Assembly: GCA_964530135.1 (NCBI GenBank) | Contig: CAZGXN010000001.1 | Span: 4,110-68,109 of the forward strand | Direction of reading: 5' to 3' | Length of the DNA: 64,000 bases | Source: an uncultured Bdellovibrionales bacterium | GTDB taxonomy: Bacteria; Patescibacteriota; Minisyncoccia; Moranbacterales; UBA1568 | In this document: positions 2,089 to 55,405 of the stretch, one piece after another | Layout: every line of letters starts with the position of its first letter | Numbering within the stretch: the first letter of the stretch is position 1 | Position numbers and translations under genes: made by a program | The notes under the pieces: generated by a model | What the model saw: the letters and a program-made list of their open reading frames with translations, nothing else | What the model was told of the DNA's origin: nothing | Database searches by the model: none

Positions 2089-4161
2089 TTATTTGCCCTT
2101 TTCCTGCCGCGCGCCATCAATAAGTGCCCGAACAGCGTTCACATTAATATCGGGCTTGCGGCGGAGTGCTTTAAATCTTTTCGGCTCAATATGCTGGGTC
2201 TGTGATAGCTTCATCGGCGGCTCAGGTGCAGTGTATGCACGGAGCTCGGTGGACTGACGGCGCTCTGGACTCAGTGGCTTCTCAGTCAGCCGCTGCTGAG
2301 GAACAGGAGCGGCAGATTTCGTTTGTGCCACAACCTGATTCCGCTCCCGAGCGATCGCCCGCTGGTAATCACGCAGACAATCCTTACAAAATGTTGGGCG
2401 AGAAGCGTCGGGGGCAAAGGGTACTTCAATATCAATGCCACAAGTTGCACAAACTGCTGGATACAATACTTTTTCAGGGACCACTGCCGGTAACTCAGTC
2501 TCAAACATGTTTTCTGCCTCTTCAGGTGTTGCACTGTCCGGTACAACTTCAGGGGTTGGTGTAATGGGTCGCTGAGTTGAAGAAGCTTTCGGTAGTTTCG
2601 ATGTACTAGCTGATACAGTAATTGACTCAGTCGGTTCAGAAACTGTTTCAATACTCGGCTTGGGTAATTGCACAGGAATCGGTCTCGGTGCGATCGGCCG
2701 AGCCACTGGCTTGGGACGCGCTGGCTCGGTTATTTGTTCTCGCTTTGCGATCGTTTCGGTGCCGTGCAGTGGTGCTATTCGTTCCCGCGAGGTCGGACGT
2801 GGTGCTGTAGTCAACGGAGTAGTCTTTGGAGCTGCTGTTGCAGGTGTTCGCAGTGCCTGCTTTTCTTCTTCGGTCAACATCCCCGTCCAACGCCGGATCT
2901 TTTCTTCAACCTCTGCTTGTGAGGAAGCATAGCGTTCGCGAGTCGCCGCAATCACTTTCTCATTGATCCCGGGCGTTTCAATAAGAATCGGTGGAAGTGT
3001 CGTCGCCGAGAAAGCGTCCCCCGCGATACCATCTATCATCAGCTTGAGATAGATCTGATATTTCGGCAGATTCACCATGTCGTTCATCATGAACACTGGC
3101 TCGAATTCCTTTTCGAGGAACTCAGCATCCTGCGCTCCGACGCGGAAAGAAATAATCGTGCCCGCGTTGCCAAAAATTGCATCCCGAACTGGCTCTTCGA
3201 GCTGTGTAATATACTGATTGGCCAGAATGAGTGAAAGGCGATATTTCCGCGCTTCTGAGAGAATGTTGGCAAATGAGTCTGTCGCAAAGTTCTGAAATTC
3301 ATCGACATAAAGATAAAAATCCTTGCGGTCTTCCTCCGGTGTGTCCACGCGGCCCATGGCGGCGAGCTGGATCTTTGTGATCATCATCGCGCCGAGGAGT
3401 GCGCTTGAATCCTCACCGATCTTACCTTTAGCGAGGTTCATGATAAGGATTTTCTTTGAATCCATCACTTCACGGACATCGAATGCGCTCGTCGCCTGAC
3501 CGATAATATTGCGTATCAGACTGTTTGAAGTAAATTGACCGACTTTATTCTGAATCGGAGAAATGACTTCTTGAAGTACGCGTTCATTCCATCCCGCAAA
3601 TTCAACCGTCCAAAATTGTTTTACGACTGGATCAGTTACCTTCTCCATCACCCGCTCACGATAGCTCTTGTCGACGAGAATCCGCATGACACCCAACAAA
3701 CTCGCACCCGGGTATTCCAAGAGAGCAAGAATCGCATTTCGGAGAATATATTCCAGGCGTGGGCCCCAAGAATCCGCCCAGATTTTTTTAAACACCCCAA
3801 CCAAGCCAGATGCCACAAGCGAACGCTGATCGGCTCCAACTTGTTCCAATACATTAAAAGCAATCGGGAAGGCTTGGTCAGCCGGATCAAAGTAGATCAC
3901 ATCATTAATGCGTTCCGGCGGAATGGCTTTGATGAGTTTGAGAGCGACATCACCGTGCGGATCGATGAAACAAATGCCATGCCCCTGTTGGATATCCTGA
4001 ATTGCCAGGTTCTCGAGCAGATTTGTTTTCCCCATGCCGGTCTTGCCGATGAGGTACATGTGCCGACGACGGTCATCGGCCTTGATACCAAAAACCCGTT
4101 CTTGATTGCGGAAATTCGTCTTGGCGAACACGGTAATTTGATTGTCAGCGGACTCGGGCAT
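2089..4161 (-). CDS. type IV secretion coupling-protein-like P-loop ATPase (TrwB/TraD/VirD4 family). Soluble, with a Pro-rich linker and a C-terminal CxxC...CxxC zinc ribbon.
   Basis: Walker A IGKTGMGKTNLLENL followed by the FIDPHGD motif (the DPxGD signature of T4CPs). Walker B YLYVDEFQNF. There are no N-terminal TM helices. The C-terminus contains CATCG...FCKDC. Confidence 0.6.
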   Translation of the reverse strand: MPESADNQITVFAKTNFRNQERVFGIKADDRRRHMYLIGKTGMGKTNLLENLAIQDIQQGHGICFIDPHGDVALKLIKAIPPERINDVIYFDPADQAFPIAFNVLEQVGADQRSLVASGLVGVFKKIWADSWGPRLEYILRNAILALLEYPGASLLGVMRILVDKSYRERVMEKVTDPVVKQFWTVEFAGWNERVLQEVISPIQNKVGQFTSNSLIRNIIGQATSAFDVREVMDSKKILIMNLAKGKIGEDSSALLGAMMITKIQLAAMGRVDTPEEDRKDFYLYVDEFQNFATDSFANILSEARKYRLSLILANQYITQLEEPVRDAIFGNAGTIISFRVGAQDAEFLEKEFEPVFMMNDMVNLPKYQIYLKLMIDGIAGDAFSATTLPPILIETPGINEKVIAATRERYASSQAEVEEKIRRWTGMLTEEEKQALRTPATAAPKTTPLTTAPRPTSRERIAPLHGTETIAKREQITEPARPKPVARPIAPRPIPVQLPKPSIETVSEPTESITVSASTSKLPKASSTQRPITPTPEVVPDSATPEEAENMFETELPAVVPEKVLYPAVCATCGIDIEVPFAPDASRPTFCKDCLRDYQRAIARERNQVVAQTKSAAPVPQQRLTEKPLSPERRQSTELRAYTAPEPPMKLSQTQHIEPKRFKALRRKPDINVNAVRALIDGARQEKGK

Positions 4162-4214
4162 AAGATGCGTTGATCTAAAGCGAAAAAACGGTTTGAGTAC
4201 AAGCCTCAGTGAAC

Positions 4215-5492
4215 CTATTGTACTGGCAAATTGTTGGGGGCGCCACCACGCTTAGTCATGACGCGTGAAAGGGCTGGCGCGAGCACCTGCATATCCGGCA
4301 GATGAAACACTGTCGCCAGTTCTTCTGAAGAGAACATGAAACAGTTACTCGGTGGGTCAGAATCACGAGTAATATAGCGACGAAATAACCGACGCTGACG
4401 ATACCGCGTCCGCTGATCGACCAATAGATAACTCGCATAGGTCTTGGTGAGGTCGTCCGGTACCATGCTGTTTAGATTGAGATCATTGAATTGTTTGATC
4501 GCTCCGATAAAGGCCGAGACACCGGTTGCTTTGGAGAAATGCTCTTTTTGACCGATATACACATGGCGCATTTTCGTCTTGAACATCGGCTTACCAATAT
4601 TGCTTTCCAAGGCCTTCAGTATATCTTTTTGTCCAGGCGTGAGTCGGAACTCAACTGGTTGCTCTTCGGCCGCAGCGGCTTCTGAGAGACTCGTCCACGT
4701 CAATTCCTGTCCCAAGAGACCAGAAAACAAATTGCGGAAGACGTCCACTAAATCATGCCAAACCCGCGCAAAAATACCCAATCCGGCAACTTCTTCGTGT
4801 CCCAAAAACTCCTCGATCGTCGCCTGACCTTTCTTGGCTCCCCAATCCTCTTTCACAGGAGTTACCAAAAATTGGAGCCAGAGATGCTGTCCCGGACCGA
4901 TCTTCCCCATCGTTTCAATCAATCCAGCCAATGGATCAAGCATTTTTCCGGTAACGGATTCTTCAAAAAATTTATATGTCCGAATCGGGTAAAGGTCCGG
5001 TTTGAATAATATAAACTCTGTTCCCCACAAGTCCCAATCTCTGTTTGGCAGTGTCCGCGGCACATGCTTTGTATAATCCTCGGCCTCGACAATCTCGACA
5101 TTCGGATACTGCGCATAAAAATGTGCTTCAACCAAATTCCGAAAGGGTTTCTGAGTCCGAATATACATATGGACCAGTCCTTCGGTACTGACAAGCTCGA
5201 GGCTAAACTTGGCCGGGTATTCACCCGCGATATACTCTTCAAAAACAGTCGGTGATTTAATCACGCCGCCAAACCCCGAAAAAATCATCTCCATCGGATG
5301 TGGACTTTTTTCGAGCTCTTTCGGAGGAATAATCTCGAGTAAGACCCACTCAATGTTGCTTCCAAAGAGTTCATTACGACTGCTCAGCCAGAGAAATATA
5401 AACAACGGGTATAGAACGAACGGGAGTACATAAAACCAAACATCGCTCGCCACAGAAGCAATGGTCAATATGTTGTAAAAAAATTCAATCAT
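4215..5492 (-). CDS. membrane protein (2 N-terminal TM helices plus a ~350-aa soluble domain). Probable partner or anchor of the downstream coupling-like ATPase.
   Basis: Hydrophobic N-terminus VWFYVLPFVLYPLFIFLWL. It is co-directional with the ATPase gene, 54 bp upstream of it. Confidence 0.5.
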   Translation of the reverse strand: MIEFFYNILTIASVASDVWFYVLPFVLYPLFIFLWLSSRNELFGSNIEWVLLEIIPPKELEKSPHPMEMIFSGFGGVIKSPTVFEEYIAGEYPAKFSLELVSTEGLVHMYIRTQKPFRNLVEAHFYAQYPNVEIVEAEDYTKHVPRTLPNRDWDLWGTEFILFKPDLYPIRTYKFFEESVTGKMLDPLAGLIETMGKIGPGQHLWLQFLVTPVKEDWGAKKGQATIEEFLGHEEVAGLGIFARVWHDLVDVFRNLFSGLLGQELTWTSLSEAAAAEEQPVEFRLTPGQKDILKALESNIGKPMFKTKMRHVYIGQKEHFSKATGVSAFIGAIKQFNDLNLNSMVPDDLTKTYASYLLVDQRTRYRQRRLFRRYITRDSDPPSNCFMFSSEELATVFHLPDMQVLAPALSRVMTKRGGAPNNLPVQ

Positions 5493-5673
5493 GCCACTGC
5501 ATCACTCATTACGCGACTCTCAGTCTCTTCTCATAGTATAGAGAGTTTTTGCGCGCGAGGAAACTCTTTCCTCTGGTCCGGAAGGATATAACGGTAAAAA
5601 GATAGGGCGACATATCGAATCATCAAATGGACACGATGCACTCGATCAGACAAGTCTGAAACAAATCACGGAA

Positions 5674-6780
5674 TTACTTCCGCTTATCGGAGAGAGAGTA
5701 GATATTTTTTCCTACCTTTGTGAAAAAACTATTGAGGTTGATGATGACCGTCGAACGCTTTACTTGACGGACCTTCATCACGGCCTTCAAGAGCTCTTCG
5801 CGTGTCATAGGATTAACATTCTCTTGGAGGATAGAAGAAAGGACTTCGCGAACAGTCCCAGGACGAAACCCCCAATCAGAAAGAGCATAGGTACCCCGCC
5901 CAACTAGAACAAAGCGTTCATCTTTGATGAGTTCATTATGCACGGTTTGCGGATGTGTCTTCTTGCCCGTTTTGTAGAGGCCGTGCTCATCAATGAGACG
6001 GGCAATTTCACGGAAATGCAGTGGCTGTTTCATCACCTGGAGTATCAGATGGGCACGCTCGCGAGTCCCACGGGGACGGATAGTACTCCAATGGACAAGT
6101 CCGTAACGACCAAAAACATTTTTCTCAATTTCAACAGCTGGAACAAGCAACGACTCAAACATTTCTTTCGTCATATCAGTCGCTCCGGATTTCTTTATAT
6201 ATCGAGCATAGAGATCGTCCAATGACTGAGTCTCAGCCGCCTCCTTGAGAATACCAACGACCAATACTACGAATGCTTCCCATTCTTGAAGAGAAAAATC
6301 ATCCGTCATAATAATCGCTTTGTGTCGCGTGTTCGCCTTGCTCATCCGGCATCCAGGAAAAGCTGAGAGTAGGGCGAGGAGCGCCTTTTCTTCCGAGACA
6401 CTGCCATTTCCCAAGTCTGCGAGAACCGCATCGATCGTCATGATCCCACCTCGTTGTCTCACTCGCTCAATGACACGATTCACCAATGCATGATCTGCTT
6501 CATGGGCCATAATTTCCCGAATCCGCCGCATGATGACATCGACGATCTGACGGACTCGCTCGCGCGTGATACCATGTGTTTTCCCAATTTCTTCGAGTGT
6601 CTTTTCGGTACCATCTGTAATACCAAAACGCGCGCGTGTAATGACACCCGAACGCTCAGGGAAAGACGCCAATAAAGCATCAAAAAGATCTTCGGCCGTA
6701 CGCGTACTTGACAGACGAGCAGAATCAATAGTTTTCCTTCGTTCGGACATAAAAAAATCAATAATTATGATCTCTAACAA
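5674..6780 (-). CDS. DNA-binding protein with a sigma-70 region-4-like HTH and a C-terminal HARE-HTH domain
   Basis: TLEEIGKTHGITRERVRQI is a classic sigma70 r4.2 HTH. The C-terminal PLHFREIARLIDEHGLYKTGKKTHPQTVHNELIKDERFVLVGRGTYAL matches the HARE-HTH pattern. The likely start is the second Met (MSERRK). Confidence 0.6.
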   Translation of the reverse strand: MLEIIIIDFFMSERRKTIDSARLSSTRTAEDLFDALLASFPERSGVITRARFGITDGTEKTLEEIGKTHGITRERVRQIVDVIMRRIREIMAHEADHALVNRVIERVRQRGGIMTIDAVLADLGNGSVSEEKALLALLSAFPGCRMSKANTRHKAIIMTDDFSLQEWEAFVVLVVGILKEAAETQSLDDLYARYIKKSGATDMTKEMFESLLVPAVEIEKNVFGRYGLVHWSTIRPRGTRERAHLILQVMKQPLHFREIARLIDEHGLYKTGKKTHPQTVHNELIKDERFVLVGRGTYALSDWGFRPGTVREVLSSILQENVNPMTREELLKAVMKVRQVKRSTVIINLNSFFTKVGKNIYSLSDKRK

Positions 6781-6882
6781 CGCTTCATATTAACGCATAT
6801 TACCATATTTTGTCAAGAGTTGACGAAGAGTGAGGCACCTCAGACCAACTACCGTGTCTATCATCCTTAATCTTGGATTTGT

Positions 6883-6911
6883 TTGCCATTGATAAGTATG
6901 TCTTGTATAAT
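6883..6911 (+). promoter_or_regulatory. sigma70-like promoter (TTGCCA-N17-TATAAT) for the 6964 gene
   Basis: ttgcca at 6883-6888 and tataat at 6906-6911. It lies 52 nt upstream of the ATG. Confidence 0.45.
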
Positions 6912-6963
6912 TTGATCAGGAGAATACAAAGAATTCTCACAAACACGGAAAGAAATAAAAAAT

Positions 6964-7728
6964 ATGACTGATGTTTCTACTGAACCAAGTCTTCAACCCG
7001 TTCCAGATGGGGGCGCTAAGATTCAGGCCCTTCGGGAAATGATTCTCAATGCTGAACGCACTATTCAAAGTGCCAAGGCGATGCTCCTTCAGATTGAAGG
7101 GAAGAAGAAAACTGGTCGCCCCAAGAAATCAGAAGATTCTGCACTCGGCACAATCATTGAGGGCACTTTCGATGGACAAATCATGCTCGGTACTGATGGG
7201 AAGCAATACCCCGTCCCAGCAAACTATGCCTCCAAATCGAAACTCGTCGAAGGCGACATGCTAAAGCTCACTATCACGCCGGATGGATCGTTTATCTACA
7301 AACAAATCGGCCCCATCGATCGTCGCCATGCTATCGGTATCGTGAGTCAAGATGAAAACGGAAATTATCACATCGTCGTCGATGGTGAACCCTATCGCGT
7401 ACTCTTTGCTTCAATTACCTATTTCCGCGCTGAACCAGGCGATGAAGTCGCTGTCATGCTCCCACGAGGACTTTCCGCCTCCTGGGTCGCTATAGAAAAT
7501 ATCCTCCAAAAAGGCACGCTCGGTACACCCGTCCCACCCGTGAAGCCAGCGAGCGAACGCCATCTCCACGCCGACTGGAAAAAAGATCTCGCTGAGGAAA
7601 AAATGCCTGACTCTGATACCGCGACGACAATGACCCCGGCAGCGACCGCAACAGCCGATCTCTCACCGCTCGATGCCTGGGTGAAAGACATGGAAGCGAT
7701 CGAAAAAGAAATTGCCGAAGGTCGCTAA
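6964..7728 (+). CDS. hypothetical protein with two ~55-aa beta-rich internal repeats and a basic GKKKTGRPKK segment
   Basis: Internal repeat GQIMLGTDGKQYPV...LVEGDMLKL versus GNYHIVVDGEPYRV...EPGDEVAVML. Composition is clean. Confidence 0.5.
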   Translation: MTDVSTEPSLQPVPDGGAKIQALREMILNAERTIQSAKAMLLQIEGKKKTGRPKKSEDSALGTIIEGTFDGQIMLGTDGKQYPVPANYASKSKLVEGDMLKLTITPDGSFIYKQIGPIDRRHAIGIVSQDENGNYHIVVDGEPYRVLFASITYFRAEPGDEVAVMLPRGLSASWVAIENILQKGTLGTPVPPVKPASERHLHADWKKDLAEEKMPDSDTATTMTPAATATADLSPLDAWVKDMEAIEKEIAEGR

Positions 7729-7766
7729 TCACAAATCCAACTCTTAACCCAATCGACAATTATTCT

Positions 7767-8246
7767 ATGGACACTAATTCCGTGCCGAATCCTGAAGTTA
7801 CCCGCTTCTCCAAGGCCTGGTTCATCCGGACAATAAAGCAGTTTTCAAAGTTTATTATCGTAGGTGGCGTAAACACCGGCATTGATGTCGTTATTTTGCG
7901 GATACTCGTCGGCGTTACTGGTATTGTCGGTGGCGGCGGTATCGTCGTTCTCAACGCTATTTCATTCTCAGTAGCTGTCGTCAACAGTTACTTCATGAAT
8001 AAGCTGTGGACATTTGAAGACAAGACTCGTACCGAAAAGGAGCCTTTCAAATTTTCTCAGTTCTTCATCGTCAGTCTCATCGGCATCAGCATCAACAGCG
8101 GCGTTGTATATGTCATCACGACATTTACCCAACCCATACTCGGCATCTCCGAAGCGAACTGGGTCGTTGTCGCCAAGCTTTTCGCCACTGGATTCTCGCT
8201 CGTTTGGAACTTTATTGGTTACAAACTCTTCGTCTTCAAAAAATAA
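7767..8246 (+). CDS. GtrA-family membrane protein
   Basis: FSKFIIVGGVNTGIDVVIL...VNSYFMNKLWTFEDK is the GtrA-like signature. About 4 TM helices. Confidence 0.7.
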   Translation: MDTNSVPNPEVTRFSKAWFIRTIKQFSKFIIVGGVNTGIDVVILRILVGVTGIVGGGGIVVLNAISFSVAVVNSYFMNKLWTFEDKTRTEKEPFKFSQFFIVSLIGISINSGVVYVITTFTQPILGISEANWVVVAKLFATGFSLVWNFIGYKLFVFKK

Positions 8247-8263
8247 TCAGTGTTTCTCCTGCC

Positions 8264-8295
8264 AAACCCCATCTCCCTTTTATGGGGTTTTGTTT
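8264..8295 (+). terminator. Rho-independent terminator after the gtrA-like gene
   Basis: ccccat(ctccctttt)atgggg followed by ttttgttt. Confidence 0.6.
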
Positions 8296-8316
8296 CGTTC
8301 GTGAGAAAGGTATAAT
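8289..8316 (+). promoter_or_regulatory. putative promoter for dnaX (-10 tataat at 8311-8316, weak -35 ttgttt)
   Basis: tataat is followed by the aggagg RBS at 8318-8323. Confidence 0.35.
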
Positions 8317-8334
8317 AGGAGGCACTGCCATCCA

Positions 8335-9978
8335 TTGAAGCAATCTATGTCCGAAACCTTCTACCGCAAATACCGACCCCTCCAGTTTAAAGACATCATC
8401 GGCCAAGAAACCGCTGTCGCAGTTTTAACCCAAAGTCTCATCACGAGGAAGATTGCCCATGCCTATCTCCTCACTGGGTCACGCGGAACAGGCAAGACAA
8501 CCCTCGCCCGACTCTTTGCCAAAGCGCTGAACTGTTCGGAGCGTACAGGGGTTGAACCCTGTGGACACTGCCCACACTGTCTCGCTCTCGCTGATGGCCG
8601 CTCTCTCGATGTCATCGAGATCGATGCCGCCTCCCACACCGGCGTCGATAATATCCGTGAGCTGCGTGAAACAATCGCGAGTGCGCCAGTAATCGGAACC
8701 TATAAAATCTATATTATCGATGAAGCGCATATGCTCTCCATCGGGGCTTGGAATGCCCTCTTGAAAACACTTGAGGAGCCGCCCGCCCACGCCGTCTTTA
8801 TCCTGGCCACAACGAATGTAGCCAAAGTTCCCGAAACTATTCTCTCACGGACTCTTCGCCTTGATCTCCGCCGCTTTCCGGTTGAGCTGATCGTTACCAA
8901 ACTTGAAAAGATTGCACGGGCCGAAAAATTAAAGATCGACAAAGAAGCCCTCACCCTCATCGCGCGCACCGCTCAAGGTGGTATGCGCGATGCTGAAGTG
9001 CTATTCACACAGATCGCAACACTCGAGGCATCCCCCATCGATGCGGCCCGCGTCGCCCTCCTCCTCGGGACAACAACGCTCGCGGCCAATCACACACTCC
9101 TCACCGCGATCGCCGAGCGCGACCTCACTCGCGCTTTCACCACCATCGCCGAATTGAAAGACACTGGTGCCCAACTCGCGGGTTTCACTCTGTCGCTCCT
9201 CGAATACTGTCGAAAACTCCTCTTCGCCTCAGTGGACCGAGATACGGCCAACAAACTCATCGATGATTTCACACCTGAAGAAAAGTCTGAGCTCTTCGCG
9301 CTCGCCACAGCCCTCGGTTCGGACCGCATTGTCGAATGCCTCGAGCGTTTCCAAGAAGCAGACCGGCTTATCAAGGTCTCGCCCTTGCCCGAGCTCCCGA
9401 TCGAAATCGCAGTCGTCAAGCTTATCCAAAACGATCAACCAAGCGCCACTCACCTCCCTGTAGCTCCAACGATCGCACCCAAAGCCCCCACACCCCATAC
9501 TCCAGCGAACCCAAAACCCACCGCTCCAAAAAAAGTAAAGCCTGACTCAACAAAACAATTCACTTCCCTAGAATCTACTTCTGTTATAGCACCACTGCAG
9601 GAACTAAAGGCGATCACTCCCGATATGACTGTCGATCTGGAACTCGCTCTCCGTCAATGGCAGGCTATCAAGCTGCATGCCCTCCGACTAAACGCTTCGC
9701 TCGGTGTTGCTCTCTCGACGGCGACCCCGATCATCCAGGATCATCGGCTCATACTCCAGGTAAAGTACCCCTTCCATAAAGACCGTCTCACTCAACCAGC
9801 AAACCGATTGACACTCGACCAAGCCTTTGTTACGATTTTGGGGTTTCGTACACCCTGGGGCATCACCACTGAAAAAGAAGCGACTGAGGCGAAGCCAAAA
9901 GTTACCGCTGAACGGCCCGCCGTCATCGACGAAGCGATAGCTATGCTCGGGGGACAGCTCGTTACCGAAACCAATTAG
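8335..9978 (+). CDS. dnaX: DNA polymerase III subunit gamma/tau
   Basis: KYRPLQFKDIIGQE, GSRGTGKTT and the zinc module CGHCPHC are present, followed by clamp-loader motifs. Confidence 0.85.
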   Translation: MKQSMSETFYRKYRPLQFKDIIGQETAVAVLTQSLITRKIAHAYLLTGSRGTGKTTLARLFAKALNCSERTGVEPCGHCPHCLALADGRSLDVIEIDAASHTGVDNIRELRETIASAPVIGTYKIYIIDEAHMLSIGAWNALLKTLEEPPAHAVFILATTNVAKVPETILSRTLRLDLRRFPVELIVTKLEKIARAEKLKIDKEALTLIARTAQGGMRDAEVLFTQIATLEASPIDAARVALLLGTTTLAANHTLLTAIAERDLTRAFTTIAELKDTGAQLAGFTLSLLEYCRKLLFASVDRDTANKLIDDFTPEEKSELFALATALGSDRIVECLERFQEADRLIKVSPLPELPIEIAVVKLIQNDQPSATHLPVAPTIAPKAPTPHTPANPKPTAPKKVKPDSTKQFTSLESTSVIAPLQELKAITPDMTVDLELALRQWQAIKLHALRLNASLGVALSTATPIIQDHRLILQVKYPFHKDRLTQPANRLTLDQAFVTILGFRTPWGITTEKEATEAKPKVTAERPAVIDEAIAMLGGQLVTETN

Positions 9979-9983
9979 TCTCT

Positions 9984-10055
9984 TGGGGAGTAGCCAAGCG
10001 GTAAGGCAGGGGCCTTTGAAGCCTCCATGCGATGGTTCGATCCCATCCTCCCCAG
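9984..10055 (+). tRNA. tRNA-Gln (anticodon TTG)
   Basis: Hand-folded cloverleaf. Acceptor tggggag/ctcccca, D-arm gcc..ggc, anticodon stem ggggc/gcctc with loop ctTTGaa, T-arm gatgg-ttcgatc-ccatc. It is near-identical to the E. coli tRNA-Gln 5' half. CCA is not encoded. Confidence 0.85.
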
Positions 10056-10058
10056 CTA
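10041..10058 (+). repeat. direct repeat copy 1 (tcccatcctccccagcta), the 3' end of tRNA-Gln
   Basis: Exact 18-bp match to 10825-10842. Confidence 0.8.
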
Positions 10059-10334
10059 AAGCGAAAGAGTTGTCCTTTTGGGCAGCTTTTTGGTTTTAAT
10101 GTAGGATGATATGGGAGCAAACGGTAAAGGGGGTCGGGAAAGTGGGGGGTTTTCCCGTAGCGGAGAGCAACGAGTTCCGAGTGTTGAGAACCGATGGGTT
10201 CTCAAAGAGCGAAGCGATTGAGATTCCCATCAGCCCTAGCATTGGATCTTTAGAGTGCTACTTAGTAAATAGATAAGCTTCCACAGCGTCCCAGCGGCTC
10301 AATAAATATATTTTAAGTTTAAAATACTACTGTT

Positions 10335-10811
10335 ATGGCTCACCTAAATTATTATGTCGATCTTTGTACGAATGCATACATTGTGAATAATGGTGCAGTA
10401 CTTTTACGTTTACACGAGAAGTATAATTTTTGGATTGCTCCGGGCGGTCATGTAGACCCAGGAGAAGATGTCAACCAAGCAGCACTTCGAGAAGTCTGGG
10501 AAGAAGTTGGTTTGAAGGTGGAATTAGTCGGACCAAGTACATGGATCAAGCAGGACTTTGACATCAATAAAGATTTGGTACCGCCAATCTTTGTGAATAG
10601 ACACTCAATCAATGAGCACCACGATCACTCCTCTTTTATTTTTGTTGCAAAGTCGGACAGTCGTGAAATTAACCCACAAGAAGAAGCCAGTAAAAATGCC
10701 GAGTGTGTTTGGGTAACTCAAGAAGAATTAGATCAAATGCACAGAGACGACAGTCGTCTGCGTAAGGATGTATATCGCTATGCGTCTATGGCTCTTGAAC
10801 TCATCAAATAG
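10335..10811 (+). CDS. NUDIX hydrolase
   Basis: Nudix box GGHVDPGEDVNQAALREVWEEVGL. AT-rich codon usage. Confidence 0.75.
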   Translation: MAHLNYYVDLCTNAYIVNNGAVLLRLHEKYNFWIAPGGHVDPGEDVNQAALREVWEEVGLKVELVGPSTWIKQDFDINKDLVPPIFVNRHSINEHHDHSSFIFVAKSDSREINPQEEASKNAECVWVTQEELDQMHRDDSRLRKDVYRYASMALELIK

Positions 10812-10824
10812 ATTCCCACTTGCG

Positions 10825-10842
10825 TCCCATCCTCCCCAGCTA
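10825..10842 (+). repeat. direct repeat copy 2 (tcccatcctccccagcta)
   Basis: Exact copy of the tRNA-Gln 3' end. It lies 3 nt upstream of the hydrolase ATG at 10846. Confidence 0.8.
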
Positions 10843-10845
10843 TTT

Positions 10846-11522
10846 ATGAATCCCTCTCGCCAACATGTCATCATTTACTCCCACGGTTTCGGTGTCGAGC
10901 GCGATGCCCGCGGAATGTTTACGGAAACTTCAGCCGCCTTTCCTGACGCCGAAAACATCTTGTTTGATTACAATATTCCAAATCGGACGGAAAATTCGAT
11001 CATGGTCCGGCCACTGAGTGAGCAAAAGGATATCCTCCTCGCCGAGTTAGCTCGCGTGAAAGAACGATCGCCTGCAGCTATGATCGACATCGTCGCCCAC
11101 TCACTAGGTTGCGTCGTCGTCGCGCTTGCAGAGCCCCTAGGCATACGCAAAACCATCTTCTTGGCTCCGCCACTTGAAATGAGTTCTGCTTCACTCAAAT
11201 TCAAACGATTCACCGATCGCCCTGATTCCATTATCAATCCCGATGGGATATCTCGTCTCGCCCGAAGCGATGGTAGCATGACGCTCGTCCCAGCCGAATT
11301 CTGGAAAGAACGTGAGACGATTGACCTGTTGCGCTCTTCAATGCCTATTCGGCATATATCGAGCTTACTCTCATCCGAGCGAAGAATGATACGGTCGTCA
11401 GTACCCGCGATTTCCCTGCTCTCTCGTCGCGCATCAACAGCATCAGTCTTGCTGGCGACCATGATTTCCGATTCGAATCAAGAGCTGGTCTTATTAAAAA
11501 AATGAAGGAACTGCTCCAATAA
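10846..11522 (+). pseudogene. alpha/beta-hydrolase-fold serine hydrolase carrying a frameshift near 11320-11343 (authentic pseudogene or sequencing indel)
   Basis: MNPSRQHVIIYSHGFGV...VAHSLGCVV (GxSxG-type nucleophile elbow). The annotated frame degenerates into S/L-rich low complexity after ~11340. Shifting one frame restores a protein-like AYSAYIELTLIRAKNDTVVSTRDFPALSSRINSISLAGDHDF...KKMKELLQ that ends at 11522. Confidence 0.5.
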
Positions 11523-11986
11523 AAAAGAGCCGCATCAATCGACACGGCACCCAGTCTGCGGGTCAAAGCCCAAATACTTCGCGAGATGACGGAATGTTGG
11601 AAATTCTTCCCGATTCCAATGACCAAGCTTGTATTCTTTTTTTGAATGGCGAGAAACTTCTTCTTAGCTGCGGTGGCAGCTTCCCAGATGAGCATCGAAT
11701 GATGCAACCACTTCACCTGTAACACACGGGGTGGGCAATGAGGGTGTTTCATCTGGCGACAGTCGTAACGCACGAGATAGACGAGACAGTCTTCCCCTGT
11801 AACACCAGCATCAACAACATGCTGCACCACCCAGAGCTGATCATTGGGACGCTCAACCCAAACCTGGTTCGGTATCGGAAAGACTTTCGTCCCCCGACTG
11901 AGGTCCGTCTCTGGATGGCCTTCGGGCCGCTCCCCTTTGAGTCTCCGCAGTCGATACGGCCGCAGTTTCCCTGGCACTCTCTTCAT
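11345..11986 (-). CDS. hypothetical protein. Only the N-terminal ~155 aa (11523-11986) look genuine. The 3' part overlaps the hydrolase.
   Basis: MKRVPGKLRPYRLRRLKGERPEGH...LVYLVRYDCRQMKHPHCPP is protein-like. The overlap portion is low-complexity. Confidence 0.3.
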   Translation of the reverse strand: MKRVPGKLRPYRLRRLKGERPEGHPETDLSRGTKVFPIPNQVWVERPNDQLWVVQHVVDAGVTGEDCLVYLVRYDCRQMKHPHCPPRVLQVKWLHHSMLIWEAATAAKKKFLAIQKKNTSLVIGIGKNFQHSVISRSIWALTRRLGAVSIDAALFYWSSSFIFLIRPALDSNRKSWSPARLMLLMRDERAGKSRVLTTVSFFARMRVSSIYAE

Positions 11987-12073
11987 GGTTCACCTCTTTT
12001 GGTAAGTTGCAGTGTCCCTGTTATAGCTTTTTTCTCTCTACCAGTCAACATAACAAGAGGTATGTTATCCTGA

Positions 12074-13768: not shown

Positions 13769-15355
13769 TTAGAGATCATTGCCTGAATAGGAAAGATTGA
13801 AGCTCTTATTGATCAATGGAAAATCCGGCACCATATCACTCGTTACAAGATATGGAAAAACCGGCCAATTCAAGAAAGATGGGTCCCGCACCTTCACGCG
13901 TGTAACCGCGCCGACAGAATCCGTAGCAATGAAGTAAACAATATCCCCGCGCCAACCTTCGACGAGACCAACTGCATGCGCATTGGGCGTGAGCGAATTG
14001 ACTGTGGCAGCAATGGGTCCATTCTTTGAAGCCTCTTGTTCAATCGCTTGATGCAAGATTTTGAAAGATTGGTACACTTCGCGCTCCCGAATCTTGTATC
14101 GAGCAAAGACATCGCCAGCCGTCTCAGTAGGGACAGAAAATTGAATCCTCTCATACGCCGCATATGAAAAGTCTGTCCGCGCATCGGCTTTGATACCGAT
14201 GGCCCGTGCGCCGATCCCCACAATCCCATGATCTATCCCAATAGAACGTTCTATTCGACCCGTGTTTTGAAGTCGATTGAGCAGTGAGAGGCTTTCCGAC
14301 ACTGCCTCCATTATTTCCCGAAAATCCTGTTCGAGATCCATACTATCTGCCTTGAGAGCTATTAGTTGGTCATTGGAGATATCCTGTGTCAATCCGCCTG
14401 GGAGGAGCATGCCCCGCAGAAAACGGTGGCCGGTGAGTCGCTCGTTCCATTCCATTACTCGTTCACGAAGACGCGTCCCTTGACTCCCCCCAAATGCGAG
14501 GCCCGTGTCAAGCATGATAAACGCAAGATCATTGAAATGATTGGCTAATCGTTCGAGCTCAGCGAGTATTGTCCGGAGATAGATCGCCCGCCGAGGTACT
14601 TCCACTGATGCGAGCGTCTCAATAGCCTGACAATAAGCCAGGGCATGATGAAATGAACTATCACCTGAAATGCGTTCCGCTAATGCCACTCGTTTTTCAG
14701 ATGAGAGCACTTCAAAAAGTTTTTCCGTTCCTTTGTGGACATAACCCAGGCGTGATTCGAGACGGAGGATCTCTTCACCCAGGACACTGAAACGAAAGTG
14801 CCCGGGCTCAATAATGCCAGCATGGACGGGACCGACGGGTATTTCATACACCCCTTCGCCCTCATAGCGCTTGAAAGTCGCCCATTCCTTTTCCTGAGGC
14901 TCAGTGATCACCGTGTTCCACTGAAACTCTTTCCTGAGCGGATAGATATCTTTGGGAAAATTTTCAGCATGGAGAGTTATCCGTTCTGGTTGAGGGTGTC
15001 CATCTGGATTAAGCCCAAAAAAAGTCAAAATCTCGCGCTCATACATGGCAAATTCTTGGTCTTCGGGCGTGAGTGAAGGAAATGAAGGCTTGTCAGCATC
15101 CACTGTGAGGTATGGTATAAGAAAACAATTTTCCTTTGGCACACCAAAGACATAGTAGATTCGAAAATTCCTGTTACTTGCTCGCTCATCGGTAGCAGAA
15201 ACTGTTTTGAGCGGGAGACTGTGTGTTTTCTTCAAAGTACGGATAACTTGAGGAAGAGCCTCTGCAGATACCTCAAATAACACCCGATTTCCTTCGACTG
15301 TTGGGTTGGGAATATCGAGACCAAAACGCTGGAATACGCGGAGTGAGTCAATCAT
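13769..15355 (-). CDS. NuoC-NuoD / [NiFe]-hydrogenase large-subunit-like protein (Ehr-type) lacking both Ni-Fe cysteine motifs
   Basis: An N-terminal 30-kDa (NuoC-like) domain is fused to a NuoD/HycE-like domain. Where RxCGxCxxxH is expected it reads RISGDSSFHHALAYCQAIE. The C-terminus is SFNLSYSGNDL with no DPCxxC motif. Confidence 0.8.
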   Translation of the reverse strand: MIDSLRVFQRFGLDIPNPTVEGNRVLFEVSAEALPQVIRTLKKTHSLPLKTVSATDERASNRNFRIYYVFGVPKENCFLIPYLTVDADKPSFPSLTPEDQEFAMYEREILTFFGLNPDGHPQPERITLHAENFPKDIYPLRKEFQWNTVITEPQEKEWATFKRYEGEGVYEIPVGPVHAGIIEPGHFRFSVLGEEILRLESRLGYVHKGTEKLFEVLSSEKRVALAERISGDSSFHHALAYCQAIETLASVEVPRRAIYLRTILAELERLANHFNDLAFIMLDTGLAFGGSQGTRLRERVMEWNERLTGHRFLRGMLLPGGLTQDISNDQLIALKADSMDLEQDFREIMEAVSESLSLLNRLQNTGRIERSIGIDHGIVGIGARAIGIKADARTDFSYAAYERIQFSVPTETAGDVFARYKIREREVYQSFKILHQAIEQEASKNGPIAATVNSLTPNAHAVGLVEGWRGDIVYFIATDSVGAVTRVKVRDPSFLNWPVFPYLVTSDMVPDFPLINKSFNLSYSGNDL

Positions 15356-15360
15356 ATAAT

Positions 15361-16812
15361 TTAGTCAGTGAGATCTTGACGAATAGATTCGAGGAGTGCT
15401 GAGAGTGGCTCAGGGAGATGCCAGCTAAGGACAAGCAGGGTCACAAGAATTAGTACTGCTGGGAGCTGTGTGAGGAAAGAACTCTCTCCGCGTTCGATCC
15501 CCTCCGACACCGACCCATACATCAAAGCGGTTACGAAACGGAGGAGTCCAAAAAACATGATACTGAGTGCTCCAAGGAGTGCCACTGCAAGCCAAGGTGA
15601 AAACTGAATGGCAGCTGAAAGGATAAGAAACTTCGTCGTGAAAAGCGCGAAGGGTGGCAGTCCAGCGAGGATAAGGATACCAACGAAGAAAAGTGGCCCA
15701 GAAAGTGGGAGCGCTGTGAGGACACCCCTGACATTCTTGAGCTTGGTCGAACTGTAACAAAGGAAAATGTTGCCCGCGAGCAGGAAAAGCATCGACTTGA
15801 TCAGCGCATGATAGAGCATATGGAAAAGGCTCGCGAGAATTCCAACACCTCCTAAACCAAAACCAAGAGTGATGAGGCCCATATGCTCAATGCTTGAATA
15901 CGCCAACAAACGCTTGTAATTCTTCTGGATAAATATAATGAAGGCTGCAAGGAAAATTGAGAGTATCCCGAAAAAAATAAAGAGGCTACTGGTAAAGTGA
16001 GCATCGTCACCCAGGGCAATATCTGTAACCAACTTCCACCGCAACACTGCAAAAAGCGCGACATTGAGGAGTACGCCTGACAAAAGGGCTGAGATCGGCG
16101 AAGGTGCTTTGCTGTGCGCATCTGGAAGCCAAGTATGGAGAGGTGCCAGACCAATCTTGGTCCCATAACCGATAAATACTAAAACAAAGGCAATTTTGAC
16201 GGCTCCTGATGGCAATGTTCCTGCCGCCGCAATAAAACCAGCCCAATCAGTCGCACTCGAACGCTCGCCCTGAAGCGCGATAAAAATAAGTGTCCCCAAG
16301 AGACCAATCAGAAGACCGAGTGCATTGATGATGAGGTATTTCCAGGCAGCCTCGGTCGCACTGGGCTTATTATAAAAACTGATAAGAAAGACTGTTGCTA
16401 GCGTCGTGGCTTCAATAGCGATCCAGGTAACGATTGGATTTGTGGTTGAAACGGCCAGATACATGGCAAAAAGAAACAGCTCCAACAAAACAAAAAACTG
16501 ACGCACCCGGCGTGGTCCAATGATCCCCTTGGCTACCTCAGCGCGAAGATACCCCACTGAATAGAGTGAGACAAAAAAACCAACCAACGCGATCAAGAGT
16601 ACGAGGTACACTGATAAATTATCCAGTGCCAGGCCGCCCGGGTGAATTGTCGGCGTGTTCGCTGACGGCGAAATCACGAGTCGAACAGCGAGTGTGAGTG
16701 CAATACCCGCGGCCGCAATAACACTTCCTTCTATGAGACGAATTTTCTTTGCTGGTAAAAGAAATACAAAGAGGGCAATCAATGCAGGGAGGAAGTTCAG
16801 GATAAATATCAT
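15361..16812 (-). CDS. NuoM/NuoN/MrpD-like antiporter-type membrane subunit
   Basis: Polytopic membrane protein carrying GLAPLHTWLPDAHSKAPSPISALLSG, the conserved motif of the NuoL/M/N-MrpA/D-HyfB/F family. Confidence 0.8.
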   Translation of the reverse strand: MIFILNFLPALIALFVFLLPAKKIRLIEGSVIAAAGIALTLAVRLVISPSANTPTIHPGGLALDNLSVYLVLLIALVGFFVSLYSVGYLRAEVAKGIIGPRRVRQFFVLLELFLFAMYLAVSTTNPIVTWIAIEATTLATVFLISFYNKPSATEAAWKYLIINALGLLIGLLGTLIFIALQGERSSATDWAGFIAAAGTLPSGAVKIAFVLVFIGYGTKIGLAPLHTWLPDAHSKAPSPISALLSGVLLNVALFAVLRWKLVTDIALGDDAHFTSSLFIFFGILSIFLAAFIIFIQKNYKRLLAYSSIEHMGLITLGFGLGGVGILASLFHMLYHALIKSMLFLLAGNIFLCYSSTKLKNVRGVLTALPLSGPLFFVGILILAGLPPFALFTTKFLILSAAIQFSPWLAVALLGALSIMFFGLLRFVTALMYGSVSEGIERGESSFLTQLPAVLILVTLLVLSWHLPEPLSALLESIRQDLTD

Positions 16813-16823
16813 ATAAGAGAGGA

Positions 16824-17483
16824 TTAGTCTTCGGTAAGGTGGCGCATCTCACGAGTATCAAGCGATCCAAATTGACGGTACACGAGACTCAAAAATGTAT
16901 AGGCGATCATCATCCAGATAAGAATATCGAAAATGATACCCATCTCAAGTGCGAAGGTCTGCTTCACGCCAAGGAAAACAGCAAAGAGTATGATGCCATT
17001 CTCAAGTGCCAGGACAGCGATAATCTGTGCGAGTGCCCCTTGTCGATTGATAAGGAGAAAGATAGCGATGAGTACCATCGCGATATTGAAGACAAAAACA
17101 TCCGGCGTAACGGATGACACCACCCACAACGAACTAAAGGTTGAGGAAGCTGCAAAGATGATGAGGCCGAGAAGTACAACCAATGTCAGTGGCATCGAGA
17201 GATAACTCGCACTTGCAACGAGATAACCGAAGCGCTGAATGAGACGCGTGAAAAAGTACGGCGCCAGAATCACTTTAGCGATGAGTGTAATACTACCCAC
17301 AGCTATCAAACTGCGTTCCCCTTCTGCTAGACCAAGAAGTATGAGTACGCCCGCCACCGACGCTGACTGCAGCGCATACAGACGAATGGTATACTTTGTG
17401 CTCCGCACCAGATGCAAAAGTACCACTGTGAGAAAAGCCACGAGATTGAGAATAAGTGCAAGATTGAGGAGAGAAGCTTCCAT
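16824..17483 (-). CDS. small polytopic membrane subunit (HyfE/NuoK-like, tentative)
   Basis: 219 aa with ~6 TM helices, embedded in the operon. Its size is similar to hydrogenase-4 component E. Confidence 0.5.
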   Translation of the reverse strand: MEASLLNLALILNLVAFLTVVLLHLVRSTKYTIRLYALQSASVAGVLILLGLAEGERSLIAVGSITLIAKVILAPYFFTRLIQRFGYLVASASYLSMPLTLVVLLGLIIFAASSTFSSLWVVSSVTPDVFVFNIAMVLIAIFLLINRQGALAQIIAVLALENGIILFAVFLGVKQTFALEMGIIFDILIWMMIAYTFLSLVYRQFGSLDTREMRHLTED

Positions 17484-17487
17484 ATAT

Positions 17488-18468
17488 TTACAGTGTCAAT
17501 GAGACCGTGAGTACCACAGCAACCATACCGAGTACAAATGAAGTAAAGAGTAAATCTGGAACACGGAAGATACGGAATTTTGCCATCAGCGATTCGATGA
17601 GCGCAATAGCGCCGAGAAAACAAACGGTTTTACCAGCAAAAATAAATGCTGGGAGGAAAAGTGTTTGAAATGAAACAAACTCAACTGCGACCCCCCAAGG
17701 AAAGAAAATATTAGCTCCCAATGCGATAAATATAAGAAGTTTATTCGCACTTGCCCATTCCATGAGCGCGAGCCGTTTGCCGGAATATTCCAGCAACATC
17801 GCTTCATGAATCATCGTCAGCTCAAGATGAGTCGCTGGATTGTCTACTGGAAAACGGGAATTTTCAGCAAGGAGAGCGAGCGCAAAAGCGAGGAAAGCAA
17901 CAAAGAGCGGAAAAATTACAGAGAGCGGAAGTGTGCCGAGCTGCGCTACAATATCGAGGACATATCCGGTCCCCGCAAGAAATGAAGCCGGAAGAAATGA
18001 AAAGATGAGTCCTGCTTCAGCCAAGGCTGCTACCATCATCTCTCGGCTTGAACCAAAACCACCAAAGCCACTTCCCGCATCGAGACCAGCCAATGCCAGA
18101 AAGAATGTCATCAGCCCAAAGAGGTAAACAATGATGAGAAAATCACCCGTAGCAGTCAGAGCCCACTCCGGATAGCCTGGAATCGCTGGGGCAATTGCCG
18201 TTACCAGCGGCACAGTCGCACCAAGCAGAAGTGTGATAGCAAAGATGATGTAAGGAGCAAAACGCGTAATCCACGAAGCATCCTCTGAGAGGACTTCATC
18301 TTTTGCGAAGAGCTTGCGCAAATTGCGATACGGTTGAAAGATGTCGGCTCCGACCCGACCTTGGAGACGCGCTTTCAGACGACGAATAATCCCAATACAC
18401 AGCGGCGACAAAACTGGAACCGCAACGATTTGAAGAATAAAGAAAAAGAATTCCATAGGTAGAGTCAT
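17488..18468 (-). CDS. NuoH/HycD/EchB-family membrane subunit
   Basis: ~8 TM helices. Its length and hydrophobicity match the complex-I subunit-1 family. The stop overlaps the upstream gene (18468). Confidence 0.7.
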   Translation of the reverse strand: MTLPMEFFFFILQIVAVPVLSPLCIGIIRRLKARLQGRVGADIFQPYRNLRKLFAKDEVLSEDASWITRFAPYIIFAITLLLGATVPLVTAIAPAIPGYPEWALTATGDFLIIVYLFGLMTFFLALAGLDAGSGFGGFGSSREMMVAALAEAGLIFSFLPASFLAGTGYVLDIVAQLGTLPLSVIFPLFVAFLAFALALLAENSRFPVDNPATHLELTMIHEAMLLEYSGKRLALMEWASANKLLIFIALGANIFFPWGVAVEFVSFQTLFLPAFIFAGKTVCFLGAIALIESLMAKFRIFRVPDLLFTSFVLGMVAVVLTVSLTL

Positions 18469-20531: not shown

Positions 20532-21070
20532 GCAGCCTGAATTGTCCGATTATGATCGATGGTCTCCAATATCTCGAGAACTGCTTTGAGTATAACTTTT
20601 GGTGCCGGTGGATCACCCGAAATTTTAAAATCTACCGGAATGACATCGGCTACCCGATCATACACGGCGTATGAACCGCGATAGATGCCACCATCGATCG
20701 CGCCATCCCCGACCGCGACGACCCACTTAGGTGTCGGCATCGCAGCATAGGTCCGCCGAAGACCTTCAGCCATATTGCGGCTCACTGGGCCGGTCACAAA
20801 GAGCATGTCCGCGTGCCGAGGCGAAGCCACAAATTGCACGCCAAAACGCTCAATATCGTAATAGGCATTGGTGAGCGCAACGAGTTCCTGTTCTTCAGCA
20901 TTACTCGAACCAGCGGCGACCTCACGAATCGCGATAGAACCACCGAACAGTTTATTGGCACGTTCTTTAATCGCTTTGCCGAGAGTCTCAATCTCGCTGA
21001 TTCCACGAATATCACGCTCACTTTTCACCTTGAGCGGTGTCGTAAAGATTTTTTTCAGCATCTGATACAT
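20528..21070 (-). CDS. NuoB / hydrogenase small-subunit-like protein with no cysteines at all (no Fe-S cluster N2 ligands)
   Basis: YDIERFGVQFVASPRHADMLFVTGPVSRNMAEGLRRTYAAMPTPKWVVAVGDGAIDGG aligns to the NuoB core YDxxRFG...SPRQAD...MPEPKWVISMGSCANGGG. All four Cys positions (CC, C, CPP) are replaced: AAGSS, GDG, DPP. Confidence 0.75.
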   Translation of the reverse strand: MYQMLKKIFTTPLKVKSERDIRGISEIETLGKAIKERANKLFGGSIAIREVAAGSSNAEEQELVALTNAYYDIERFGVQFVASPRHADMLFVTGPVSRNMAEGLRRTYAAMPTPKWVVAVGDGAIDGGIYRGSYAVYDRVADVIPVDFKISGDPPAPKVILKAVLEILETIDHNRTIQAA

Positions 21071-52130: not shown

Positions 52131-54796
<2,666 letters not shown>

Positions 54797-54799
54797 AAT

Positions 54800-55402: not shown

Positions 55403-55405
55403 AAT

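Follow-up and report, generated by a model that had tools for sequence, protein, structure and literature searches.

The analysis of a 64-kb stretch of DNA from an uncultured Bdellovibrionales bacterium (contig CAZGXN010000001.1; the whole stretch is referred to below as the window) indicates that a 784-bp unit with one intact gene, encoding a NUDIX hydrolase, is probably a small integrase-less mobile cassette, which entered the T-loop/acceptor end of a tRNA-Gln gene (anticodon TTG) by conservative site-specific recombination. The observations behind this reading are a repeat of the tRNA 3' end bracketing the unit, its foreign composition, the boundaries of its homology to other genomes, the variable occupancy of the locus in relatives, independent parallels at other tRNA-Gln genes and no local integrase.

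The repeat-bracketed NUDIX unit

The original prediction, made from the letters of the window, centred on an exact 18-bp duplication of the tRNA-Gln 3' end, with an AT-rich segment encoding only a NUDIX hydrolase between the two copies. The duplication is borne out: TCCCATCCTCCCCAGCTA occurs exactly twice in the 64 kb, with no further occurrence at up to 3 mismatches, and 100 dinucleotide shuffles gave 0.06 matches on average, none of them containing two. The first, attL-like copy consists of the last 16 nt of tRNA-Gln and 2 flanking nt; it spans T-loop positions 59-60, the 3' strands of the T stem and the acceptor, the discriminator G and the 2 nt beyond it. ARAGORN and Rfam agree that tRNA-Gln(TTG) is the single tRNA gene of the window. 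The copies are separated by 766 bp, which gives a unit of 784 bp (10041-10824 or, equivalently, 10059-10842), and the separating segment contains a terminator hairpin, decayed junction remnants and the intact NUDIX gene (Table 1).

The arrangement is not an assembly chimera, because both junctions are read through by independent assemblies of the same organism, found among the loci fetched for comparison (designated L001, L002 and so on). L002 (9134-10837) covers the left junction and L001 (9999-16811) the right one, at 100% identity to the window and with zero differences. Contig breaks in the 5' half of tRNA-Gln occur in four independent assemblies, which represent this organism or a closely related strain (the ends of L003, L004 and L224 and the start of L001, at window positions 9999-10012), and the contig end of L002 falls inside the attR copy. 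These breaks could reflect population heterogeneity, or may merely reflect a tRNA sequence common to organisms; their interpretation as a sign of excision was rejected, the tRNA 5' half being common to different organisms.

As originally claimed, NUDIX is the sole credible open reading frame (ORF) between the 18-nt copies. Its product contains an intact Nudix box GGHVDPGEDVNQAALREVWEEVGL (pattern GX5EX7REUXEEXGU) and matches PF00293 with 66.7 bits against a cut-off of 21.1; among the substrate-specific subfamilies (MutT, RppH, NudC, ADPRase and others), every NCBIfam equivalog match falls far short of its cut-off, the best one scoring 39 bits vs 116. The NUDIX unit is compositionally foreign. 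The GC content is 0.41 at 10312-10824 and 0.47 at 10059-10311, compared with 0.50 for the whole window, and the AT-richness claimed for the entire segment holds for the NUDIX part but is less pronounced in its first 250 bp. A composition scan ranked NUDIX lowest among the 49 genes of the window in GC (z=-3.2) and in GC at third codon positions (GC3, 0.37; z=-3.0), and the lowest-GC 477-nt stretch of the window begins at ~10260.

The NUDIX protein has 390 relatives, the best 120 of which are all 63-100% identical and equal in length, with source labels that include Moranbacteria, Kaiserbacteria, Paceibacterota and Parcubacteria. The identity reaches 84-94% in metagenome-assembled genomes labelled Moranbacteria and Kaiserbacteria. 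For dnaX, a neighbouring housekeeping gene, no relative exceeds 57% amino-acid identity in a collection with one genome per species (185,579 species). The NUDIX gene is horizontally acquired cargo. Comparison with its nearest copies gave 96-98% identity at codon positions 1 and 2 and ~70% at position 3, and the gene is under strong purifying selection. A link to phages, which the original prediction had proposed to check, found no support, as the NUDIX protein had no match in 2.9 million viral contigs; JGI metagenome contigs contained the gene at just 2 loci. A 68%-identical NUDIX homologue in L098/L099 (567-9534) shares its block with genes for a large serine recombinase, an N6/N4 DNA methyltransferase, a LexA/S24-like repressor and a caspase-like peptidase. 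The block adjoins aspartyl-tRNA synthetase and may be an integrative element with NUDIX cargo.

At the DNA level, six other distinct loci (L085, L086, L087, L090 and L092 among them), on contigs of Patescibacteria type, match the window NUDIX at 78-88% nucleotide identity. This homology is confined to the stretch from ~10312-10333 (2-23 nt before the ATG) through ~10810-10829, and the genes around NUDIX differ from genome to genome. In the three closest loci (L085, L086 and L092) the homology reaches 16-18 nt beyond the NUDIX stop, into ..GCGTCCCA, and in the alignment it ends where the tRNA-identical block starts. The right junction is therefore chimeric: a cassette arm makes up its left 15 nt (AGATTCCCACTTGCG, homologous to GTTCCAACATCG of other cassettes), and the end of the local tRNA its right 18 nt.

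Upstream of NUDIX, the original prediction had noted a degenerate tRNA-end copy at 10222-10240 and had taken it as a hint of successive integrations or decay. The copy itself stands as a partial match to the tRNA end (Table 1) and shares the 9-mer AGATTCCCA (10221-10229) with the arm left of attR (10810-10818); it is weak alone, and may possibly represent an old junction with an internal deletion. A clearer internal junction, which the original prediction had missed, is present at 10267-10302, within a probable relic that spans 10260-10302. Its junction copy (10279-10301) agrees with the consensus described below at 20/24 positions, a score reached in 0 of 2000 shuffles, and the region including ..AAATAG aligns with the attR region (10805-10845) to an extent matched in 3 of 2000 shuffles. 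An equivalent junction upstream of NUDIX is found also in L085, L086 and L092. Judging from these alignments, 10260-10302 is likely a relic of an earlier cassette end, and it is likely here that the NUDIX cassette has its true upstream boundary; the idea of successive integration or decay gains support from the internal relic. Since a terminator and junction relics occupy the 250 bp that separate the NUDIX leader from the tRNA, the unit is probably composite, an accretion of several insertions, here or in an earlier host; the composite was then possibly transferred as a whole.

The hairpin that directly follows the tRNA is present in minimum free energy and centroid structures alike. The segment 10057-10334 folds better than its shuffles (z=-2.96, 1/200) and contains a local hairpin, GAGAACC-GATG-GGTTCTC, at ~10188-10205. 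No RNA family was matched by the spacer (10059-10334) in Rfam searches of the window at the gathering threshold and of 9900-10900 at E<=10, the tRNA being the sole match, and the 56-aa ORF at 10106-10276 has no Pfam match. The TAAAAT of the NUDIX leader is a putative promoter that would give a near-leaderless mRNA; the promoter scan did not flag the site.

Table 1. Coordinates of the features of the tRNA-Gln locus (window positions unless a locus is named)
Feature	Position	Strand	Basis
tRNA-Gln (anticodon TTG), intact, anchor/target (attB side)	9984-10056	+	ARAGORN; Rfam tRNA 61.5 bits, full length
attL-like 18-nt copy TCCCATCCTCCCCAGCTA	10041-10058	+	motif search, repeat-family listing
Intrinsic-terminator-like hairpin with T-run, directly after the tRNA	10064-10100	+	12-pair stem, loop of 4, T-tail
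G-rich spacer	10101-10220	+	no homologue in fetched loci, no Rfam match
Degenerate tRNA-3'-end-like/junction-like sequence AGATTCCCATCAGCCCTAGC	10221-10240	+	13/16 to tRNA end, p ~0.05 within the segment; weak
Probable relic of a cassette 3' end (..AAATAG), then junction-motif copy, TTCCACAGCGTCCCAGCGGCTCA	10260-10302	+	junction consensus match; alignment with attR region
Short conserved NUDIX leader with -10-like TAAAAT ~10 nt before the ATG	10312-10334	+	left limit of nucleotide homology; alignment
NUDIX hydrolase gene, 158 aa, cargo	10335-10811	+	Pfam PF00293, E=2.8e-18
Cassette-borne left arm of the right junction, AGATTCCCACTTGCG	10810-10824	+	homology with L085, L092, L086 to ~10827-10829
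attR-like 18-nt copy TCCCATCCTCCCCAGCTA, displaced tRNA-Gln 3' end	10825-10842	+	exact repeat; colinearity with L228 from 10846
Alpha/beta-hydrolase, first backbone gene, outside the cassette	10846-11522	+	syntenic in L228/L229
GIY-YIG first cassettes	L005 8196-8632; L226 1316-1796	L005 minus	bracketed by local tRNA 3' end and its copy

Variable occupancy, parallels and cassette arrays

As judged from gene order, synteny is lost at the tRNA and, on the other side, directly after the attR copy, and the segment between these points differs in each genome; on the same grounds the attR-like copy is the border between a variable array and a conserved backbone. The taxonomy is uncertain, as it depends on how related metagenome-assembled genomes are labelled; the submitters of the closest relative (L005) labelled it Bdellovibrionales, and others carry the label Saccharibacteria or Patescibacteria. 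L005, L224 and L225 are colinear with the window through the end of dnaX. The colinearity of L005 covers the genes left of the tRNA (2089-9978; 55-91% amino-acid identity of the encoded proteins, 56% for dnaX) and resumes at GFA and CSD. The variable segment of L005, devoid of NUDIX, hydrolase and HAD, consists of an inverted tRNA-Gln and just one gene, GIY-YIG (101 aa; Pfam E=8.6e-16). Behind this gene the tRNA end of L005 itself recurs exactly over 15 nt, as CCCTACCTCCCCAGC, which differs from the window repeat in the T stem. L225 shares the left flank and the HAD-GFA pair of the window, and its array is composed of tRNA-Gln(CTG), DHH, junction, methyltransferase, junction, alpha/beta-hydrolase, junction and DUF2164.

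The right border is defined by L228/L229, which are colinear with the window from exactly 10846, the start codon of the hydrolase, for more than 6 kb. Upstream of the hydrolase these loci contain an FAD oxidoreductase and the array HAD, a junction, another NUDIX and a junction; in L228, L229 and L230 the region upstream of the hydrolase orthologue is unrelated to that of the window, with neither tRNA nor 18-mer. The NUDIX of the window is missing at the locus in L005, L225 and L228. Thus, comparison of the tRNA-Gln locus, advised by the original prediction, revealed other cassettes in place of NUDIX, which together with the composition is the opposite of a universally conserved, native-like arrangement.

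The hydrolase ATG lies 3 nt past attR. The gene is frameshifted near 11325, so that frame 1 encodes the N-terminal 160 aa, and the C-terminal 65 aa, with the GDHDF motif, come from frame 3; the length of intact homologues is 222-223 aa. It is probably a real pseudogene and not an assembly error, because an independent Logan assembly has the same sequence. The block of tRNA-Gln and downstream cassettes is inverted relative to the dnaX/GFA backbone when the window (9984-12000) is compared with L005 (7624-8632) and L225 (6970-9940), and L225 has further junction motifs 5' of the tRNA, which lie on the other strand. Recombination between inverted sites would fit the inverted block as well as the two-strand junctions of L225.

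The search for parallels covered every tRNA gene in the fetched loci, a downstream copy of the last 15 nt with at most 1 mismatch being scored. Apart from true tandem tRNA-Ser genes, it returned cases at tRNA-Gln only: the window (18/18), L005 (15/15) and L096, in which the copy is located 140 nt downstream and matches at 19/20 positions when extended. In L226/L227, tRNA-Gln(CTG) is followed by a GIY-YIG gene and then by a copy of the tRNA end that begins in the T-loop and matches at 20/22 positions. In the window, L005, L096 and L226 the sequence of the repeat is that of the local tRNA, with its start in the T-loop, and locally matching repeats with such a start are the trace expected from site-specific integration there. 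The bounded NUDIX homology, the variable locus and these independent parallels all favour the attL/attR reading of the repeats put forward originally.

In two genomes, one with tRNA-Gln(TTG) and one with tRNA-Gln(CTG), a small gene for a GIY-YIG nuclease domain comes first behind the tRNA, bracketed by copies of the local tRNA end, and this recurrent first-cassette nuclease might be connected with the insertion mechanism. In L096 (450-1065) several partial tRNA fragments surround tRNA-Gln, and a repeated arm (GGTTGTCGA...ATCATACAACCT.AAC...TGTAA.GA) flanks the tRNA on both sides. These arms look like relics of repeated integration by another type of element with inverted arm sites.

A junction motif of ~29 nt, with the consensus GTTCCAACATCG-TCCCAGAGCCTCAGCAA (GTTCCAACATCGTCCCAGAGCCTCAGCAA), is located directly 3' of the NUDIX stop in L085, L086 and L092. 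The motif also follows unrelated genes, i.e., a methyltransferase in L085, a pyrophosphatase and a DUF1905 gene in L087, and genes in L096, L225 and L228. Its left half is constant across unrelated cassettes, and its right half resembles the tRNA-Gln 3' end, with 1-3 nt of the local tRNA 3' flank in L092, L225 and the window. A hidden Markov model (HMM) built without any L225 sequence detected four junctions in L225 at E values from 4e-6 to 0.03, all intergenic and on the gene strand. With the enlarged HMM, array loci totalling 202 kb yielded 14 matches at E<1e-3, likewise all intergenic and on the gene strand, and control dnaX loci totalling 840 kb yielded none at E<0.4; the training sequences of the model account for 10 of the 14, and therefore the L225 result is the real test. 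The right junction of the window differs from the consensus by small indels, its right half being the exact tRNA end.

Co-oriented single-ORF cassettes, each ending in a junction, form arrays in L225, L085, L087, L228 and L092. The cassette types seen are NUDIX, GIY-YIG, HAD, methyltransferase, alpha/beta-hydrolase, pyrophosphatase, DUF1905 and DUF2164, of which NUDIX and methyltransferase recur in differing contexts. The next ATG is typically 3-12 nt past the junction, and no Shine-Dalgarno sequence was seen by eye. Eight junctions folded as single-stranded DNA gave z values from -0.6 to +0.95 and no consistent hairpin. A role of the motif as promoter, Shine-Dalgarno sequence or terminator was rejected as the primary explanation, as there is no sigma-70 match, no GGAGG-type sequence by eye and no hairpin. 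In L086 (657-686), L092 (1663-1678) and L226 (2460-2488) a GC-rich insert of 16-27 nt interrupts the junction, each time at the same internal position, and the inserts of L086 and L226 look mutually reverse-complementary (GCCGAG/CTCGGC repeats). The 120 matches of the left arm GTTCCAACNTCGTCCCA in viral contigs proved to be a false lead: ~105 of them represent one conserved, apparently coding stretch of an unrelated high-GC phage family, and the remaining few show no downstream similarity to the junction.

The predicted absence of an integrase was confirmed within the range of ORFs scanned. The scan took in window ORFs from 140 aa upwards, namely the long non-overlapping ones and some overlapping alternatives, as well as three shorter ORFs, and in none of these did Pfam reveal a tyrosine or serine integrase/recombinase domain. 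The unit itself, with NUDIX and the 56-aa ORF inside, contains no integrase, replication gene or remnant of an integrative and conjugative or integrative and mobilizable element (ICE/IME). PF00589 matched none of the window ORFs scanned and is missing from the precomputed Pfam tables for the array loci; the tRNA neighbours are dnaX, GFA, FtsX and ORFs without matches. No recombinase adjoins the tRNA in L005, L092, L096, L225 and L226, none was detected by Pfam in the unassigned ORFs beside tRNA-Gln in L092, L225 and L226, and NCBIfam and PHROGs searches with such neighbours gave nothing.

Elsewhere in the window, at 2089-5492, a gene for a coupling-protein ATPase of the TrwB/TraG-like type (690 aa), which has a treble-clef zinc finger, lies beside a gene for a 425-aa protein assigned to DUF8128 in L224. 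These are core genes and not parts of a mobile element, since they are kept in L005 (91% and 71% identity). A membrane module resembling complex I or group-4 hydrogenase (49-kDa/30-kDa fusion, 20-kDa subunit, NuoH-like and two antiporter-like subunits) is encoded at 13769-21070, and a type IV pilus cluster (PilB-like, PilT-like, PilC, prepilin peptidase and pseudopilins) at 54230-62503.

Proposed insertion mechanism and its alternatives

The proposed insertion would start from a circular form of the unit, in which the att site would consist of the cassette arm (..AGATTCCCACTTGCG) and a look-alike of the tRNA-Gln 3' end, with an attP junction expected to read ...CATCAAATAGATTCCCACTTGCGTCCCATCCTCCCCAGCTAAAGCGAAAGAGTTGTCC. 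In the empty site, the 5' half of the tRNA is expected to run directly into ...GGTTCGATCCCATCCTCCCCAGCTATTTATGAATCCC. Strands would be exchanged in the common TCCCA... core by a recombinase whose gene lies at another place in the genome or on a helper element; the element's copy would then complete the tRNA (attL), and the original tRNA 3' end would be displaced to the far side (attR), in front of the hydrolase gene. We infer the circular intermediate, the crossover position, the recombinase type and its action in trans from the structure of the junctions. The same process looks to be recurrent at tRNA-Gln genes of this lineage, yielding co-oriented single-gene arrays with tRNA-3'-like junctions.

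Several points weigh against this interpretation. No recombinase was identified in any locus scanned, so the catalyst is hypothetical, and neither an empty site nor a circular junction was observed in the assembled contigs. The junction copies of the window have diverged, and none is found at E<=5 with an HMM built without them. The junction consensus is 1 nt shorter than the real tRNA end, and the L092 junction mismatches the local tRNA acceptor stem; simple displacement of local tRNA ends therefore does not account for the junctions. If the consensus junction crossed over with the tRNA, the latter would be destroyed or inactivated, which implies that the incoming site already had a tRNA-compatible right half. 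The third-codon-position identity of NUDIX, only ~0.70, means that the actual donor is not in hand and that the transfer may be old. Finally, the loci were selected via NUDIX or dnaX, and the frequency of the phenomenon is not estimable from them.

The original prediction offered two readings, a remnant of a larger tRNA-targeting element or a minimal cargo islet. The latter fits better, because in other genomes the ~520-bp unit, with its end unchanged, is just one of many cassettes. It seems unlikely that a larger tRNA-integrating prophage or ICE/IME was reduced by internal deletion to attL, attR and one cargo gene, that is, to a classical cis-mobilizable element (CIME) produced by decay. Retention of attL and attR without an integrase is indeed the definition of a CIME (PMC5704250), and relic sequences do lie between the tRNA and NUDIX. 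The 68%-identical NUDIX homologue in L098/L099 is, moreover, only 6 kb away from a large serine recombinase and a LexA-like repressor. Nevertheless, the NUDIX unit with the same right arm is present in at least 5 other genomes among small cassettes and not beside phage or ICE genes, the internal relics resemble junctions and not integrase fragments (the 56-aa ORF matches nothing in Pfam), the viral contigs contain no match, and the parallels in L005 and L226 are single-gene units as well.

A still less probable course of events is natural transformation combined with homology-facilitated illegitimate recombination, in which no dedicated recombinase takes part, tRNA-Gln serves as the anchor and TCCCA... 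as the microhomology for the second joint. The tRNA-Gln genes of distant genomes, 92-93% identical, could act as anchors, the right junction is chimeric exactly at the common TCCCA, no recombinase was found, and the type IV pilus, PilB/PilC and TraG-like ATPase encoded in the window are compatible with DNA uptake. However, the anchor left of the joint would be shorter than 60 nt, and the anchor lengths that support homology-facilitated illegitimate recombination are far above 60 nt. The same outcome arose independently in L005, L096 and L226, and the repeated start of the repeats in the T-loop argues for a site-specific enzyme. The conserved arm of ~12 nt on unrelated cassettes also resembles a protein-binding site.

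It is very improbable that there was no insertion at all, the 18-mer being left from an ancestral partial or tandem tRNA-Gln duplication or being an upstream element of the hydrolase, and NUDIX being inherited vertically with unusual composition: tandem tRNA genes do give such repeats (the tRNA-Ser pairs in L049, L058 and L064), the second copy sits 3 nt before the hydrolase ATG, and NUDIX is widespread and under strong purifying selection, but nothing tRNA-like precedes the second copy, where the homology of the mobile NUDIX cassette continues instead, NUDIX is a GC3 outlier missing at the locus in relatives, and the comparison of hydrolase loci, with an unrelated upstream region and no tRNA in L228/L229/L230, largely refutes this explanation.

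Taken alone, the mobile cassette of the window is an ordinary att-flanked islet at a tRNA, and the result is modest: NUDIX is acquired cargo, inserted immediately upstream of a frameshifted hydrolase. What the comparison adds is that single-gene cassettes ending in the same kind of tRNA-like junction are shared by distant genomes, in arrays that are anchored at tRNA-Gln and have no local integrase. We tentatively consider, as a possibility that is rather doubtful at present, that they represent a previously undescribed integron-like system of Patescibacteria-type bacteria, with single-gene cassette arrays at tRNA-Gln (TTG or CTG), unstructured tRNA-3'-like sites of ~29 nt and a putative recombinase acting in trans. 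In such a system the cassettes would be captured, shuffled and inverted in trans, and the tRNA promoter would possibly drive their expression. The literature searched contained no description of such arrays in Patescibacteria, though this was a limited collection and no proof of novelty. Patescibacteria, also known as the candidate phyla radiation (CPR), have tiny genomes, and their gene acquisition is little understood. If the interpretation is true, docking of integrase-less cassettes at tRNA-Gln would be a compact route of gene flow between distant lineages, with an integron-like logic built on a tRNA end. Concomitantly, tRNA-Gln and the junction motif would provide a sequence handle for cataloguing the mobile gene pool, finding the recombinase by co-occurrence and flagging assembly or binning problems.

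Relation to known mobile systems

Integrases that target tRNA genes reportedly include a class with a T-loop sublocation, distinguished by Williams in 2002. The block of identity from the T-loop to just past the tRNA 3' end, observed in the window, L005, L096 and L226, resembles the sites of this class, whereas the integrase that defines the class is not present here.

Anchoring of islands at genes for small stable RNAs is known from the tycheposons of Prochlorococcus, tRNA-anchored islands formed by repeated integration (bioRxiv 10.1101/2020.12.28.424599), and from the ssrA-anchored islands of Dehalococcoides (PMC3146451). The likeness extends to the repeated use of a tRNA or tmRNA gene, newer insertions pushing older ones outward, and to the partial tRNA copies and degraded elements in a hypervariable island. 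In contrast, those islands are several kb long, with their own tyrosine recombinase and often replication genes, and the units described here are recombinase-less single genes of 0.4-1 kb.

The arrays share with integrons the compact, co-oriented and mostly single-ORF cassettes of unrelated functions, a junction whose left part travels with the cassette, the reuse of cassettes in different orders, the position of the next ATG 3-12 nt past the junction and the start of the array at a fixed site, here tRNA-Gln. The absence of folding in the motif and of an adjacent IntI sets the system apart from canonical integrons, whose attC sites have imperfect inverted repeats (R''-L''/L'-R') that form single-stranded hairpins. 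The junction is an asymmetric sequence of ~29 nt that resembles a tRNA 3' end and has no R''/R' GTTRRRY core, no IntI or tyrosine recombinase is found beside the array start in the window, L005, L092, L096, L225 and L226, and the place of attI is taken by a tRNA gene.

CIMEs are flanked by attL and attR and lack integration and transfer genes (PMC5704250). The NUDIX unit shares with them the use of a target gene's 3' end, with flanking direct repeats, the missing integration and transfer genes, the accretion with internal att relics and the recombinase expected from another element (PMC5704250). CIMEs are, however, kilobases long and recognisable as decayed ICEs or IMEs (in Firmicutes), whereas here one gene of 158 aa occurs as a discrete unit in many genomes, with no trace of an ICE or IME. 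The closest known system in behaviour is thus the CIME, and in its architecture the tRNA-Gln locus resembles an integron array.

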